The notes beneath the pieces are model-generated. The model had not been told where the DNA came from, searched no databases, and worked only from the letters and a program-made list of their open reading frames with translations. Shown here in pieces: positions 11,640 through 30,964 of a stretch of DNA of 64,000 nucleotides (its first letter is position 1; every line of letters starts with the position of its first letter). Source of the stretch: Sarea resinae (Eukaryota); contig JAPEUD010000037.1 in assembly GCA_026026165.1 (NCBI GenBank), positions 62,001-126,000 on the forward strand, read 5' to 3'. The position numbers and the translations under genes are program-made.

Positions 11640-12486
11640 ACGCAGAGCATAGCGGCATAGCGGCATAGTGGTAGCTACAGGGTAAAACGGTTGTTTTGAT
11701 CGATTGATTGTCCGTCTGTCGGTTTTCCTGTCTGTCTGTCCGTGACACTATGCTATGCTATGCTATACCATGCCATCGCCATTCATGGGCCGCCATCTGC
11801 TCTGCCTTGCCCTTCCTGGTTCTCCAAGGCGTTGCATTGAATTGCACTGCACTGCATTGCGTTACCTTCCGTATCGTAGCGTAGCGTAGCATCCCCCGTC
11901 TCGCAAAAGAGGCCCATGGTCTTTGTCTTGCATCTCACGTCTCCCATCCTATATCCTATATCCTGCATCCTGCCTGCCCCATCTTCCCATTTCCCCATTT
12001 TCCACAAGTGGGCGCCTCGATTCGGTTCGATCCGATCGGATCCGATCGGATCCGGTTCGAGTCTTTGTTTTCATCCAATTCGTTCGGGCGGGCGGGCGGG
12101 CGGGCGGTCATTGTTTTTTTTTTTTTTTTTTAAAAAAAATAAAAGAAAAATGTTTTCTTTCTATCCTCTTCTCTAGCGGCGGGGTGTGATTCATACGGGC
12201 CAAGAATGAGAAGAAGAAGAAGAAGAAGAAGAAGAAGAAGAAGAATGAGAAGAAGAATGAGAAGAAGAATGAGAAGAATGAGAAAAGGGGATACGGGGAT
12301 AGTACTTACCTACCTACATACCTATCTACCTACCTGCCTAGTATGTCTAGTATGTATGCTTCCATCTAGTATGCGATGGATAGTAATAATGATAGGAATA
12401 GTAATAGTAATGGATGCGGATGCAGACTTGCAGGCCAGAGAAGAAAGAATGAAAGAAAGAATGAAAATAAAATTGTTGATTCATCC

Positions 12487-12540
<54 letters not shown>

Positions 12541-13140
12541 ATACTACTTATACTACTTATACTGTCACCACCCCTTCTGACATCTACTGCATGCCCTGGG
12601 CATGAGCATGAGCATGAGCATGAGCATGAGCATGAGCATGGAGCACAGGGGCTACGCGGCCCCGACCGACCCTCCTGATCCCAATACGTAAAGCGGCTCC
12701 TAGATGCGAGACGCACCCAAGAAGTGATTGTGATTGTGATTTGAGTCATCCCATCTCCACACATCCCGCGAGGATACTCACAGATGCATTTTTGTTCTTT
12801 CGTTCTTTTTTTTCGTCCTGCATTACATTTACCTTGGGTTTTTTCGTTTTGGGGTTTTCCTACAAGTACATACATAGACCGCCTTGCTTCATACCTATCC
12901 TTGATGAGATCATCGGGATACGAAGAGGCAGAGGGGTCAGCAGCGCGGACCGTCGATACACAAGAAAGAAGTAATACGAAACAAGAGAAAAAGCAACGGG
13001 AGAAGCGCTTCGGGCGGGATTAGTAAAGCTATCCTGATTCCTTTCCTTTCCTTTCCTTCCCTTTCATTTGCCTTCCCGATTGGATATTTTCGGCTGAGCT
13101 GCCGCGCCCTGCCCTGCCCTGCCGTGCCCTATACTCCCAC
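11640..13140. repeat. Dense microsatellite / low-complexity cluster between convergent genes
   Basis: (AGA)n ~12208-12285, (TAC)n ~12488-12560, (CATGAG)n ~12601-12640, (GGGC)n, poly-T then poly-A ~12114-12150, (CTATG)n, (CTGCC)n, (TACC)n. Confidence 0.95.
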
Positions 13141-13226: not shown

Positions 13227-15511
13227 TTACGCACCCGGTGGAGGTGGTGGAGGCGGCTGATCGCTGGGAGGCTGTGGAAAATGTGAGCATATGAATTGAA
13301 AACGACGGGAAAAAAAGACTTACAGGAGGCGGAGGAGCGTCACCCGGCGGTGGCGGTGGAGGCGGGCTGCCCGCACCAGGAGGGGCGCCGTAACCTTGAA
13401 ACAAAGCACCCAGCCCAGGAGGAGCGCCCAGACCACCAGCAGCGCCGGGAAGGCCTGGAGGCGCGCCCATCCCGTGAGGAGGCGGCGGAGGAGCAGACGG
13501 GTCGCCATAGCTCGAGGAGCCAGGATAGCCGCCGTAACCGCCGTAACCGGGAGCACCACCTGGCGGCGGCGGAGGCTGATGCCATGGCGCGGCACCACCT
13601 GGAGGAGGCGGAGGAGCGTCGTAACCGCCGTGACCACCATAGCCACCGTATTCGCCAGCTGGGGCTCCACCGGAACCACCGGCCCATGGGGGTGCGCCAC
13701 CATTGCTACGGTAGTCGTCGCGGGGTGGTCCACGATCATCACGACCACGCTGTTGCCAGGGGGCAGGACCGCCGGTTGGGCCGCGTTGCCAAGGCTTGAG
13801 ATCACGGTCACCACGATCACCGCCGTATGAGTCGGGGCGCGCGTTGTCGTAACCTCCTGGGCCAGCTTCGATACGTTGGGGAGCACCGTCGCCGGCAGGG
13901 GCACCTCCCGAAAGCTCTTGCATGAGCGACTAGAAATCCATAAGCATTAGGTCAATAAAGAGGATGGCACTACTGACCTCGTATTCACGATCGACAGCAT
14001 CCCCTGCACCGATAGCTCTCGGGGGACCACGGCCAGGTTCTGCTCCACGATCATTGTTGCGCCAGTCCGCGCCTCTCTGTCGGTCGGGGCAATCTCGAGC
14101 CATGTGACCAGCATTACCGCAAACGCGACAGATGATGTTGGCGGTGAAGTTGCGCTGCTCGGGACAGTCATATTTACGATGGCCGATTTGTCCACCTGGA
14201 CGATTAGTATGGAGGGTAGAAGAGGTGAAAAGCCACTCACAATTCTGACAAGCTTGGTTCTCGTCGTCACGAAGAGTACCGTTGAGGGCGGCAAGTTCAC
14301 GAAGCTGGTTACGCTTCAATTCATTCTGCCCCTCAGGAATGGAAGCAGCCTTTGTTAAATTAGCGCTGGGCCTATGAAAGAGAACACCAAGACATACCGT
14401 TTCAATGACATTGTGAATAAGCTTCTTCGCCTTGTTCACCTTGTCTTCGGTGTCGGCCATGATCAAACAATGAAGGTCTTCTTCCTGGTTGCTGGTGTGA
14501 GCCGCGTCGGAGCGCCCTTTTCCTTCCTTGACGGATCCTTTGCCTCGGATGGCGATCTTAGCACCTGATTCTGTTTCCATCTTCTTCAGAGTGTTTCCAC
14601 GAGGTCCGATAAGCAGTCCAACTTAGTAAAAAAGAAAGCGCGCTGTGTTAGTATAAGATCAATGATATAGGTAAAGCAACGAGTAGCAAATGTGGGTTAG
14701 TGGTAGAGTCATGCTGCATCCTCCAAGGGATGCCGCACGCATCACCAAAAGGAAAAGAATGGAAAGGTTAGAGGTTAGAAATCGAGGGTTAGTTATCATA
14801 CTGAAGTTAATCTCCGGGTAGTCATTGACCGGTACATAGACTTTCTCCTGCGTCTTAGTTGGACGTCTATAATCAGACGGCGGATGATAGTTTGGAATCA
14901 CTTTCATCGCCTTTTCGATGAGCTTGTGGCGTTCCTCCTCCAGACGCTTTCGATAGCGGTACTCTCGAGTGTTGACACGACGACCGAAGTTGTCATACTG
15001 TGGTGGGGGAGATGGGGATCTAAAGCGGCGTCAGGATGGAGAGACAAGATGGGGGAAAGGGATCTCACCTGTCGCCATCAGCAGGCACGACGTCGTTGAT
15101 TCTCAGCTTCTGACTGATCTCTTCAATGCGCAAGTGCAGCGTATAAGCCTCGAGCTGCTCGTTGGTCATGTTGGCCATGATCATGGTCGGAAGACCCATG
15201 AGACCGGCGGCCTTGTTCTCCTGAGCATCACCCCAGCGGTTTCTCTTCTTGCGCCTCCTGGCACCGTCCTCGGGCGGTTCAGCTGGCGAGATGTTAGACG
15301 ACAGGACCGAGATAGCCGTCCGTAGAGAGGACTCACATCGGAGAGGGCTTCGGCCACGCTTGGTCCCAGCTTCGGAGAGGCCATTCGCTGGCTGCGAGGG
15401 GTTGTAGCCTCCATCATCATTGGACGTGGCCGGGGAGCCGTCACCAAAGCGACGACGACTGCCAAGAGGGATGTTGTTCGAACCAGTGATGCCTTGATTA
15501 CGCCACGCCAT
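13227..15511 (-). CDS. MSL5: Branchpoint-bridging protein BBP / splicing factor 1 (KH-QUA2, zinc knuckles, Pro/Gly-rich tail)
   Basis: [13 protein letters not shown] motif; [45 protein letters not shown] domain; [23 protein letters not shown]2; two CCHC knuckles; several GT-AG introns; stop 13227-13229. Confidence 0.97.
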
Positions 15512-16441
15512 GTTGACGGACAGTGGTGGTCGAGGGGGAGAGTAAAGTCGGCGGAGGGATAAGAGGTGAGAGAAAGACGTCGAAGATGCGAAGACGAGGA
15601 CCGACCAGGTCAAGGACGAGGACAAGGTCGATATCGCAGTAGAGTGAGTACTACGTAGTACTTGGCCGTCCACTGCAGACAAGGGGAAACTGAAGTACCG
15701 GGTCGTACCGCGCCCAAGCGGTCCCGATCGAGTGAAGTGTGGCGACAGCCGAGAATGGCTCATGCACGTGATGGTGACGAGCTCTGATCGCGTGTGAGCT
15801 CCCGTCCCTGCGAACGCTGAAGACGCTGAAGCATTCCGACGCTCATGGTCCGGAGACTGTTTCCCATACTAGCAATGAGAGCGGTGCAGATATCACTATT
15901 ATAACACGTATCAACAATGGAACGCAGTCACACTCCAAGCCTCCTACGATGATCCGTCCGCCCGGGTGAGAAAATGGCCATCCCCATTCTCTGTCTCCCC
16001 GAGTCTCTGTCTTGCGAGCAGCACCTCAAGAGTCAGCAGTAAATCCGATCCGAGACTTGTACTATGAGTATGCTGCGTCTTCGTAGCAACTCCGTAGTAT
16101 GCAGTAGAGCAGAGTCCCGAGTAGAGAGATGATTACTCAGCACGGCTTTATCACTATTCACCCTTACGCAGTACGGCGGTGCTTTCAAAGCAGCCCAGAT
16201 GACAAATCTGCTGCATCATGGTGGGCAGGAGGGGGATCACTGTTTACAGTACTGTCCCAACTGCACCCCACCACACCCCTCCTACACAAAACACACCACA
16301 GAACTGCAAACATATAAACTCGCCCCAATCGCTCTCGAATTTAACTCCCAGACACAACATCGAGATCCCCAAGGCCGTCTCTTTTTCGAAATTTGAATGC
16401 TCTCTCGCGTCTCGCAATTAAGCAAGCACCTAACCCGCACC

Positions 16442-17296
16442 ATGGCGTCCAAGACCAGAACCCCAGACATCACCCTCTACACGACGCAGACCCCCAATGG
16501 AATCAAGATCTCCATCACGCTCGAGGAGCTCGGGTGAGATCCCCCCCGCCCTCCCCGTTCCCCTATGACCAAAGCGCTCTACACAGAAGAAGACGGACTG
16601 ACCACGTACCACACACATAGCCTGCCGTACAAGACCGAGAAGATCGACATCTCAAAGAACACGCAAAAAGAGCCGTGGTTCCTGGCCATCAACCCCAACG
16701 GCCGCATCCCGGCGCTGACGGACAAGTTCACCGACGGCAAGCAGATCAACCTGTTCGAGTCGGGCTCGATCATGCAGTACCTGGTGGAGCAATACGACAG
16801 CGGCGCGCACAAGATCTCGTACCCGGCCGGCTCGCGCGAGACGTACGAGGTCAACAACTGGCTGTTCTTCCTGAACGCGGGCGTCGGGCCCATGCAGGGC
16901 CAGGCCAACCACTTCAACCGCTACGCGCCCGAGCGGATCCCGTACGGCATCAACCGCTACCTCAACGAGACGCGCCGGCTGTACAAGGTGCTGGATACCC
17001 ATCTCGCCGGCAGCGCTTCCGGCTACCTCGTCGGCGACAAGTGCACCATTGCCGACATCGCCCATTACGGCTGGATCTCGGCCGGACCGTTCGCGGGCGT
17101 CGAGCTGGAAGAGTTCCCGAATCTGAAGAAATGGCAGGTGCAGATGAGTGAGCGGGACGGGGTGAAGAAGGGCCAGGACGTCCCGGAGCCGAACAAGATG
17201 CTCGAGCTGTTGAAGGATCCGGCCGCGTTGAATGAGTATCTCGAGAAGAACAGTAAGTGGGTCGTGGAAGGCATGAAGCAGGATGCGAAGAAATAG
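16442..17296 (+). CDS. Glutathione S-transferase, Ure2p/YghU-like class
   Basis: TPNGIKISITLEELG|LPY, NPNGRIPAL, FESGSIMQYL, GVGPMQGQANHF, YLVGDKCTIADIA; intron 16534-16620. Confidence 0.95.
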
Positions 17297-28623: not shown

Positions 28624-30964
28624 TCACCCCACGAAATCATTGATGCCATTAGCAGTCGCTTCCCCCCAGATAATAGAGTCCATGAGCGAATATGGTGACG
28701 ACGTGGTCATAGCCATGAGCGGCGATGGCCAATGCGGTGAGTGAGTCGATTTTACTATCCCATTCTCATTCCTCTCGTGAGACTCGGAGACAGGCCCCTT
28801 GGTACCCCCAGACGAGCTTGACAATGCCGACGGCGAAACACCCTCTTCGCGATTGAGCTTGCGGAGAGCGGCAAGTGAGCGAAACAGAGGACCATAGCCG
28901 TGGGGCGCACCTGCAGTAGGATTACTAGGATCGCTCTCATCGGGTTGAGATACTAATGCTGAGAGGACGGCAATCATTTCGCTGAGTAAAGCGCGAATCT
29001 CGGGATTGCGCAAGGGTTCTTCGACGATACCAAGGAGAAGAGATGCACTTAGAGCGCGGTGCAGGGCGGCCCATGAGCGAACGCCAATAGAGGATATCTT
29101 ATTGATTCCGAGAAAAGCCTTTACGGTAGTGACCAGATTCTCGAGACATGTTTTGCGGAGTTCACGAATCTCCCTGTCATCACCTGCGGCATGACCGAGT
29201 GCTGGACGGCAGAGCTCCGATACTAGATAAGAGATGTGCAGATTCAGAGAATAATGCTCTGTCTGGTCACTGACCGTCTGGCATTTTGCGGGATCTTTGA
29301 GCATATCGTCGGCATCGTTGATAATATCCTCAAGCTCTTTTCTGAAACTCGATATTTGTGAGAAGCCCAAGTTATGGCCTGGGGAAAGCATTCGCCCTCG
29401 GACGATGTCAAGCGTGACTTTACAGACCCTGTACATGGATTCGGTGTATGTCCTATGCCCGAAGCTAGAGGTTGCCGTAAGTCCCACATCGCCGTTCATT
29501 GTCGCAGTCGAAGAATCTCTATCGTAGGAAAGAGACAGCAGACTATCTTGCCAGACGACGGCCCACCATATCTTTCTTCTCAGAAGCTGTATGTTAGAGG
29601 GGAAAGATGTTTTATTCGCCTTATGCAGGCCCAATGATTGTGCTAATCGAATAGTCATGCCTGGATCGTTAGTCAATACTTCAGCAATCTCGGAGTGCGA
29701 ACCTACCAAGCAGAGTCCAAGAAACGCCAGGATTCATATTGTTAGAAATCACGTTTCCAAGTACCAAAAGCGCTTGAACGCTTTCTAGTGATGGCTGCTG
29801 GAAAAAGTTCGTAAGACGGAGTGCTTGAAAGGAACAGCACACTGTGGCACATTAGTAGCAATTTTATCAAAGGAGGTCGTCTCGCGCCTCACCATAAACT
29901 TGAGAAGTCAGCACCCTCTCTCGCCGTGATAAGTTCGAGCATTGGCTCCCGGACGCCAAAAGAGCGAAGAGTAATGCGATCCACGAAACGCTGGTCCCGT
30001 TCGACTCGTCAAGAGGGATGAGTCCATCGGTGTGGGCTCGCGCGTCTGCTCGATTCTTGAGGAAAGTCTCGAGCTCTAACTCGAAGGCGTTGATGTCCGC
30101 CACCGCAGGGTAAAAAGTAAACGCTACATCACGATAGAGATGGAAGAATCTATGGCATGTTAGCTCGGCACAAACACGGGCAAGACTGTAGCATACTCCA
30201 AGCACTCCGTATCGGTGGGAAGTGCTTTACACAGCTCGGCCGCCCCTGGGATATGACCACTTCCAGACCATAAGTCTACAAAGGGGTACGTTGCGCTCTC
30301 GTTGTCCAGTCCGAGCATAGGAAGAAGACCTCCGCTTAAGAGTTCCTCAACCTCGGCTTTATGAGCACTCTTTGACAGATTCATGACCAATGCCGGCACG
30401 GAGCTCCCGCCCAGGTGTACTGATGCGCCAGTCAGATTGTTGAAAGCATGAATACCTTCAGCATCGGGTTGTCTGGGTGCGGTGGTGGTGGGCTGCGCGC
30501 TCCTTGGTCTGGCCGAGGGCTCATACGTCCCAGCCATGCGTGCCATGTCCTCCTTCAACGCAAAGAGCGAACCCTCGATAGTATTGAGCCTCGAAAACAA
30601 CCAGTTCCAATCCTCTCGTGGCATTGATACGAGATCGCCTCGCTCTCGGGAGTCGCCCGCCGCAGATGGGCTCCTAAATCATGTCAGTGCCAGTTTTCTA
30701 GTGCGAGACAGCGTCAAAACGGTCAACGTACACGGTCGAACGTGCCCGCTTCGGATCCCCCGACTTGCCATCCACAGCACTGCTGGGCCGCTTGGTCGGA
30801 GCGTGAAGCTGACATAACATAGGATGGTTCCTCTCTTTGCAAGCGCGGCACGGCACACGATTGTCACATTTCACCTTCCGCTGACGGCATGGATAGCATG
30901 CCTTGAAGTCGCGGGCCTTGCGCTTCTTGTGTAAGATCTCATCGACATCGCTCGGGTAGTCCAT
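28624..30964 (-). CDS. Zn(II)2Cys6 transcription factor with fungal TF middle homology domain
   Basis: ACYPCRQRKVKCDNRVPCRACKERNHPMLC cluster; RLAQSLGLH and RRKIWWAVVWQDSLLSLSYDR motifs; several introns. Confidence 0.93.

Follow-up and report, generated by a model that had tools for sequence, protein, structure and literature searches.

Branchpoint-binding protein (BBP, also called SF1) acts at the stage when the branch site is first recognized, and we know of no account of how its level is set. Exon 3 of Drosophila Sxl has a 3' splice region with two AGs and is autoregulated, and yeast RPL30 reportedly binds its own intron. Negative autoregulation by non-productive splicing of each protein's own pre-mRNA is described for PTB and At-PTB1/2 (PMC4598772). 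According to PMC3116199 (citing Berglund 1997), CUAAC is the motif of BBP, and SF1 binds the tandem UACUAAC repeats of Gomafu RNA, repeats that delay splicing in vitro. Loss of BBP or Mud2 lets pre-mRNA leak into the cytoplasm of budding yeast, according to PMC2377449 (citing Rutz and Seraphin 2000). Here we analyze a gene for this protein in a 64,000-nucleotide stretch of Sarea resinae (contig JAPEUD010000037.1, positions 62,001 to 126,000), hereafter the window, with a focus on intron 3 of that gene, which carries five copies of CTAAC.

Introns at the same position in orthologous genes carry similar arrays, their splice signals depart from those of neighbouring introns, and this intron alone is retained in several orthologous RNAs. 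That the array is kept across many distantly related fungi suggests that the protein controls its own production. In the explanation to which we lean, by a small degree, BBP curbs its own production by way of decoy branch sites, which lead to retention of intron 3.

Intron 3 of the BBP gene

The gene and the elements of its third intron are as follows, in window coordinates.

13227..15511, minus strand: SF1/BBP (branchpoint-binding protein) gene, 8 exons and 602 codons, with its ATG at 15511 and its stop codon at 13229-13227
14801-14622, minus strand: intron 3, 180 nucleotides, phase 1, where the KH domain begins, with ...EINF encoded before it and IGLLIGPRG after it
14796..14801, minus strand: donor GTATGA (A at +6), non-consensus and conserved
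14767..14794, minus strand: donor-proximal CTAAC array of candidate decoys, consisting of AACTAAC (14794-14788), TTCTAAC (14780-14774) and CTCTAAC (14773-14767)
14701..14747 (intron positions 55-101), minus strand: central hairpin-forming stretch in the minimum-free-energy structure of the window intron
14696..14702, minus strand: middle CACTAAC
14659..14661, minus strand: first in-frame stop codon (TGA) upon intron retention
14647..14653, minus strand: distal consensus TACTAAC with branch A at 14648, the likely productive branch site
14643..14645, minus strand: upstream (branch-proximal) CAG, a predicted non-productive acceptor that ends 5 nucleotides past the branch A of TACTAAC
14622..14628, minus strand: TACTAAG, branch site-like and overlapping the productive AAG acceptor (G at 14622)

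The gene is assigned to SF1/BBP because its exons, in a Pfam search, match SF1-HH (PF16275; E 3.5e-13 for exon 2 and 2.3e-24 for exon 3), the BBP-type KH domain KH-I_KHDC4-BBP (PF22675; E 1.3e-20) and the CCHC zinc knuckle (zf-CCHC, PF00098; E 5.4e-11). Its other six introns are 45-54 nucleotides long each. On the sense strand of intron 3, CTAAC occurs at 14792-14788, 14778-14774, 14771-14767, 14700-14696 and 14651-14647, which correspond to intron coordinates 10, 24, 31, 102 and 151, and AG dinucleotides end at intron positions 81, 88, 159 and 180. An original prediction, made from these letters alone, had described a KH-splitting intron of 180 nucleotides at 14801-14622 with five CTAACs, a GTATGA donor, an AAG acceptor and an additional CAG, and every one of these sequence statements holds, as does its placement of the retention stop at 14659 (TGA, 14661-14659).

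The window holds 56 CTAACs on both strands together. The array exceeds chance, because this density predicts approximately 0.08 copies per 180 nucleotides of one strand and there is one other cluster: the sole second site with at least three same-strand copies within 200 nucleotides is 29597-29745 on the minus strand.

Conservation of the CTAAC array in orthologous introns

Orthologues were collected by scanning metagenome contigs with exon 4 as query, which yielded 80 loci with 93-100% identity over 74 residues. In 72 of the 80, an intron interrupts the same codon in the same phase; these introns have a median length of 187 nucleotides (range 52-264). The remaining eight loci are three without intron 3 (L003, L037 and L039), four whose contigs start too late, and one that is rearranged (L046). 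Among evaluable loci that are not transcript-like, 69 of 70 have intron 3, making it the most constant of the gene's introns; the other five positions scored are occupied in 54/60, 64/68, 60/74, 26/68 and 34/55 loci.

Together with that of the window, these introns comprise 66 distinct sequences, which form 45 clusters at 80% identity. The 43 cluster introns of at least 130 nucleotides serve as representatives below; those of L052 and L067, short and devoid of CTAAC, were left out. The sample is deep, because the median pairwise identity of intron-3 sequences in aligned columns is 0.51, and third codon positions in exons 3 and 4 of the orthologues are near saturation, with a median identity of 0.50. 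As controls we used other introns of the same genes (n=130, median 54 nucleotides), whose boundaries were inferred by script, so that a few may be off.

Copies of CTAAC number zero in two of the 72 orthologous introns, two in one, three in eight, four in 20, five in 27 and six in 14, so that 69 of the 72 have at least three. The representatives contain 195 copies in 8063 nucleotides, as compared to 21.8 +/- 4.2 expected (maximum 36) from 500 dinucleotide-preserving shuffles. CTAAC is the commonest 5-mer in these introns, and its antisense counterpart GTTAG is absent from them. An alignment of orthologues in search of CTAAC arrays and a dual acceptor had been proposed with the original prediction, and its outcome is positive. 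The 130 other introns carry 62 copies in total (none in 70 introns, one in 58 and two in two), and in 627 kilobases of strand sequence outside the intron-3 region we found approximately six clusters of exactly three CTAACs within 200 nucleotides and none larger.

A selection test was conducted with one close pair of introns from each of the 13 clusters that have several members. In these 13 independent pairs, a single difference falls on the 300 motif positions, as compared to 353 differences on the 2131 other intron positions (Fisher's test, 8e-21), a contrast to which the aligner may contribute, as it favours lining up identical motifs. Judging from this pattern of substitutions, the CTAAC array is kept under purifying selection.

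Some orthologues (L073 and L076/L080) also have CTAAC clusters in their 5' regions. We rejected these as a related element, as they are not conserved: 39 of 47 loci have no copy in the 300 nucleotides before the ATG, and the window gene has none in the region corresponding to the L073 cluster. In L073 (2000-2106), CTAACTAAC and then ACAG come immediately ahead of the ATG, apparently as the end of an intron in the 5' untranslated region.

Arrangement and quality of the putative branch sites

In the donor-proximal array, the first CTAAC starts at intron position 5-12 in 42 of the 43 representatives, and the first 45 nucleotides hold at least two copies in 39 and at least three in 17. Branch-A positions within the array are mostly 13, 21 and 27-31. 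Nearly all of them (98/102) are less than 36 nucleotides from the donor, a distance that is the 5th percentile for branch sites of control introns (minimum 25, median 41); the proposal that the proximal copies are too near the donor to branch therefore extends to the orthologues.

Middle copies are found in 34 representatives, and CA precedes 21 of the 37 copies. A distal CTAAC whose branch A is 20-32 nucleotides away from the 3' end occurs in 41 of the 43 representatives, and 39 of these 41 have A at -1. The flanking consensus of the distal site is CA.A.ACTAACACTTAGCT. Given the sequence of U2 small nuclear RNA (snRNA), the ACTT that follows the distal motif would presumably extend pairing beyond the GUAGUA box. 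A further branch site-like sequence is frequent on the acceptor itself, as introns end in CTAA(C)(A)AG in 25/43.

It is the CTAAC cores that are conserved; the full TACTAAC is found at 16 of 41 distal and 10 of 15 terminal sites. The later copies of the proximal array are weaker versions of the consensus, because just 5 of 60 have its A at -1, and none of the 60 has TA at -2/-1. By this measure, site quality appears graded, rising from the donor towards the true branch site.

In several orthologues (L017, positions 2795-2975, and its relatives), TTAGCT occurs approximately 28-31 nucleotides after the middle branch site, and the distance is 27-33 in 15 of 32. Its likeness to the TTAGCT that follows the distal site may reflect an ancient duplication, within the intron, of a unit consisting of a branch site and an AG.

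Central segments of the introns are GC-richer and fold better than shuffled sequences in 39/43 (mean z -1.18). The window intron as a whole is not unusually stable (z -1.02), and RNAalifold predicted no consensus pairs among the 43 introns, whose centre aligns poorly. No Rfam matches were detected at E up to 1 in 14300-15100, nor at the gathering score in the whole window. With neither an Rfam match nor consensus pairs, we set aside the idea that the intron hosts a structured RNA, such as a small nucleolar RNA or a member of another Rfam family.

Intron 3 is conserved in a poor state

By the standards of neighbouring introns, intron 3 is conserved in a poor state, because it combines a non-consensus donor, an AAG acceptor and a long distance from branch site to AG. 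The donor is GTATGA in 25 and GTACGA in 9 of the 43 representatives, thus one of the two in 34. Position +6 is A in 35/43 versus 5/103 control introns, and T in 0/43 versus 69/103. The productive acceptor is AAG in 26/43, as compared to A at -3 in 10/103 controls. Productive AGs lie 20-29 nucleotides from the branch A, after a pyrimidine stretch, in 40/43, whereas this distance is 9-13 nucleotides in 82 of 103 control introns and at least 20 in three.

In a stwintron, or spliceosomal twin intron, a nested intron would disrupt one of the outer splice signals until it is itself removed; in intron 3, however, the outer donor, acceptor and distal branch site are all intact in their present form, and conserved. 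Between L003, a spliced sequence, and its genomic counterpart L007, a net 194 nucleotides are removed, and contigs cannot tell one step from stepwise removal.

Were the intron retained, translation would meet a stop codon within it in 42 of the 43 representatives. We considered whether a retaining RNA could yield a truncated functional protein, and rejected this: the first in-intron stop lies at anything from 51 to 189 nucleotides, so the read-through peptide is not conserved.

Retention of intron 3 in orthologous RNAs

Six of the 80 loci are on transcript-like contigs. Four of these retain intron 3 alone among the introns, and two are spliced:

L046: intron 3 retained; 99.6-100% identical to genomic L070, without introns 1 and 2 of L070
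L013: intron 3 retained; without all other introns; 87% identical to L060, which has six introns
L042: intron 3 retained; without all other introns; 84-86% identical to L064
L004: intron 3 retained; without all other introns; no close relative in the set
L003: spliced; 100% identical to genomic L007 in six blocks, without any intron
L039: spliced; without introns 3-5

The L003 junction, TTCA/TTGG, cuts out exactly the 194-nucleotide intron that ends in ACTAACAG. The productive acceptor is confirmed, because this junction directly follows ACTAACAG. In L046, one unbroken block extends from exon 3 to the end of exon 4, with intron 3 included. The intron 3 of L042 clusters with that of L045, which has 5 of 6 scored introns. 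L004 and L042 are probably derived from RNA, because they start shortly before the ATG (28 and 54 nucleotides, respectively) and are roughly of mRNA length. Part of the original prediction, that a non-productive isoform exists, thus agrees with the four orthologous contigs that retain just intron 3, but the isoform that it emphasized does not appear among them: the upstream AG is used by none of the six, a tiny sample of assembled contigs, which give no quantities and drop rare forms. Transcripts retaining intron 3 are likely common.

The L046 contig (1-1068) has a peculiar form, in which the first and last 120 nucleotides are identical and the end of exon 4, plus GTA, is joined to a point inside exon 1. 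The join could be an artefact of assembly or template switching, or could reflect a circular molecule. As it is not at canonical splice sites, we discarded the circular-RNA reading and treat the join as an artefact.

Two genomic contigs, L018 (69 kilobases) and L024 (44 kilobases), have lost introns 1, 4, 5 and 6 and kept introns 2 and 3. Such a pattern of loss is as expected if intron loss ran via partly spliced RNA that retained intron 3.

Absence of the array in one group

Four loci depart from the common anatomy. L037 has no intron at this position, L052 (97 nucleotides) and L067 (52 nucleotides) have ordinary introns with GTAAG donors and no CTAAC, and L072 has a degenerate copy of the array with a GTATAC donor. 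A single loss of the array within the sampled diversity is suggested by the grouping of these four in a tree of exon 3 and 4 DNA (FastTree, midpoint-rooted, no support values considered). The device is therefore widespread but dispensable, since one group of orthologues does without the array.

Other features of the window

Divergent from the BBP gene lies a glutathione S-transferase gene with GST_N and GST_C matches (16397-17296, plus strand). Its start codon is apparently in another frame, at approximately 16439, and a short intron is therefore likely. Downstream of the BBP gene, 12140-12700 consists of dense simple repeats, whose stop-to-stop frames would encode long poly-Tyr, poly-Arg/Met, poly-Ser, poly-Leu, poly-Thr, and His-Glu or His-Ala repeats. 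The CTAAC cluster at 29597-29745 was dismissed as chance, given that one copy is the branch site of an ordinary short intron and two look like Ser-Asn codons. The open frame containing it has a weak match to Fungal_trans (22.6 bits, where the cut-off is 23).

A possible autoregulatory mechanism

Intron 3 might be understood as an ancient intron that is kept inefficient on purpose and through which the gene senses its own product. Productive splicing would join the consensus distal ACTAAC to an unusually distant and often weak AG. Beside the weak donor, two to four CUAAC copies of lower quality would lie too near the 5' splice site to form a lariat, and in many species a further UACUAA(C) would sit on the productive acceptor itself. 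When BBP is scarce, mainly the best site would be occupied, and the intron would be removed. When BBP is in excess, the decoys would be filled too, and the donor would be trapped, the acceptor masked, or both, in dead-end early complexes. The resulting RNA could not encode the KH-QUA2 RNA-binding domain, because a stop is met inside the intron, and it would probably be kept in the nucleus by bound BBP. Confinement to the nucleus would account for the retaining RNAs being plentiful enough to yield contigs. The net outcome would be negative feedback on BBP synthesis.

We favour negative autoregulation by retention because the multiplied motif is that of SF1/BBP, its copies occupy unreactive positions and form a quality gradient, the splice sites are weak, and the intron is retained. 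From this combination we infer that BBP is the binder of the extra motifs, that the feedback is negative and that the retaining RNA stays in the nucleus. In its more specific form, the proposal is that the graded branch-site copies are a titration device of filamentous ascomycetes that reads free BBP and, when BBP is in excess, diverts transcripts into a nuclear pool of intron-retaining RNA; here we see the arguments as evenly poised. That this device has been kept since the divergence of lineages whose synonymous sites are now saturated seems to us equally apt to be right or wrong.

Several points weigh against this explanation. Occupancy by BBP and a response to its dose are predictions of the model. 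Retention was seen in orthologues only, as assembled contigs without quantities; one of these, L046, is circularly permuted with a non-canonical join, and L004, which lacks a close genomic relative, may itself be genomic, from a lineage in which the other introns were lost. Retention of a single intron could merely be slow splicing of a weak one. Because U2 snRNA pairs with CUAAC as well, what is sensed could be the U2 small nuclear ribonucleoprotein (snRNP) and not BBP. The consensus A at -1 is missing from the majority of proximal copies, and their affinity for BBP may be low. Conversely, the additional sites could help to bring BBP to a long intron, in which case the feedback would be positive. 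Finally, there is the clade that lacks the array, in which L037 has no intron and L052 and L067 have short ones with no CTAAC.

Alternative explanations

The original prediction was a poison 3' splice site, in which the choice of branch site settles whether the productive AG or the AG near the branch is used, and the product of the latter undergoes nonsense-mediated mRNA decay. As the main mechanism, we consider this rather improbable. Its dual acceptor is real in most lineages: the first AG past the distal branch A is at +7 in 32 of 43 representatives, at +6 in four and at +5 in the window, and an AG at 5-7 nucleotides followed by the productive AG 13-22 nucleotides further on occurs in 37. 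These AGs, mostly TTAG or CTAG, have a better acceptor consensus than AAG. In the window, splicing to the CAG at 14643 (intron position 159) would read T R F L F Y stop, just as had been proposed, but an in-frame stop after the upstream AG is found in the window only. Calculated with each locus's own exon 4, use of the upstream AG would shift the frame in 28 of 37 cases, 27 of them with a stop within exon 4, and would add 5-7 in-frame residues without a stop in eight. A premature stop is thus predicted in 28/37 (the 27 frameshifts and the in-frame stop of the window) and not in all lineages, one frameshift having no stop in exon 4, and the insertion lengths exhibit no frame preference. The branch-choice logic fares worse. 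In the window, the CAG is the first AG after the upstream CACTAAC, but the corresponding relation holds in just 6 of 32 representatives with both branch sites, so a switch through the choice between upstream and downstream branch sites is not a conserved feature. Moreover, +7 is below the range of real branch-to-AG distances (at most 7 in 3 of 103 controls, 9-13 in 82), and no transcript-like contig (0/6) uses this AG. The upstream AG is therefore conserved as a sequence, but neither its stop nor its branch-choice logic appears to be, because the in-frame stop is confined to the window, no frame bias exists and the 6/32 count is low. Fixed just inside the distance that seems usable, the AG may serve in recognition of the 3' region or as a marginal competitor.

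Unlikely, but deserving the most attention among the remaining alternatives, is that intron 3 senses general splicing capacity. Its CUAACs would titrate U2 snRNP or a complex of BBP with U2AF/Mud2, and BBP output would follow spliceosome availability or an external signal. The conserved weak donor, weak acceptor and long branch-to-AG distance agree with such a sensor, as do the RNAs that retain only intron 3 and the conserved bases ACTAACACTT that flank the distal site, which would presumably lengthen the pairing with U2 past the GUAGUA box. However, the multiplied motif is exactly the one that the gene's own product reads, no such array was found in other genes of the window or in the locus flanks, and proximal copies with C or T at -1 would pair less well with U2 too. 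Poor signals are harder to reconcile with the idea that the extra CTAACs are splicing enhancers, which gather BBP beside the donor and throughout the intron, so that an intron lengthened by, for example, its central structure is recognized in an organism whose introns are typically defined at approximately 50 nucleotides. Intron 3 is indeed 3-4 times longer than its neighbours in all lineages, and the better-than-shuffled folding of 39/43 central segments would fit a structural cause, but the conserved poor donor, acceptor and branch-to-AG distance are difficult to square with selection for efficiency, intron 3 is the one that transcript-like contigs keep, and the structure has neither an RNAalifold consensus nor an Rfam family; we judge enhancement to be about as doubtful as the poison acceptor, if not slightly more so. 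Least credible, and by a long way, is a DNA-level element, in which the donor-proximal repeats CTAACCCT bind a Myb-type or other DNA-binding protein and affect transcription. CTAACCC (58), TAACCCT (39) and AACCCTC (28) are among the commonest 7-mers, and the reverse complement of CTAACCCT has what we take to be a resemblance to the TTAGGG telomere repeat. Nonetheless, (A)CTAAC is all that the middle, distal and terminal copies have in common, their flanks being different, the distal copy occupies the place required of a branch site, and the motif is the branch-site consensus in the gene for the branch site-binding protein.

Implications and relation to known systems

We found no description of self-regulation of BBP/SF1 via its own intron, in fungi or elsewhere, in full-text literature, a body that leaves most subscription journals uncovered. 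If autoregulation through intron 3 is true, BBP would be the first core factor of branch-site recognition seen to govern itself by means of decoys that copy a core splicing signal. Self-sensing by a conserved intron would offer a simple account of how the BBP level is balanced in a large group of fungi. It would also mean that core splicing signals, when placed where they are unreactive, can serve as regulatory elements; decoy logic is known for mammalian decoy exons, and we know of no such case for branch sites. The element is small (approximately 180 nucleotides), its parts are sharply defined by conservation, and it can be tested with reporters in Aspergillus or Neurospora. For annotation, a transcript that retains intron 3 should be read neither as contaminating genomic DNA nor as evidence of a shortened isoform of the protein.

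As in autoregulation by other RNA-binding proteins, such as PTB and RPL30, a cognate motif lies at regulated splice sites of the protein's own pre-mRNA, the non-productive RNA has a premature stop, and the element is conserved, here with retention in orthologues. Unlike those cases, the putative regulator is a core branch-site recognition factor, and the cis-acting element consists of decoy copies of a core splicing signal rather than a specialized binding site. Sxl exon 3 likewise has a branch-proximal and a distal AG that are both conserved, and autoregulation, established for Sxl, is proposed here; the organism, regulator and outcome differ.

The array also resembles the repeats of Gomafu/MIAT, where the branch-site consensus is present in several conserved copies that do not serve for branching (PMC3116199). 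As that source presents it, however, Gomafu is a vertebrate non-coding RNA that acts in trans and has exonic UACUAAC repeats, whereas the array described here is intronic, resides in the fungal SF1 gene itself, and has CUAAC alone in most of its proximal copies. In the competition between SF1 and Quaking, occupancy of ACUAA sites by STAR/KH-QUA2 proteins decides between splicing and retention or skipping (PMC13004596), much as we propose for intron 3. That system involves two proteins and ordinary target introns in mammalian cells, and the article describes no self-targeting and contains no word that begins with "autoregulat" (PMC13004596). A comparable logic is that of decoy-driven intron detention, reported for SF3B1 intron 4 (PMC6097662) and OGT (PMC12017769), in which one intron is kept by means of non-productive splice signals. 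The decoys in those accounts are cryptic exons, furnished with 3' and 5' splice sites, that lie within long introns of mammals, whereas the candidate decoys of the BBP gene are copies of the branch site within a fungal intron of 180 nucleotides.

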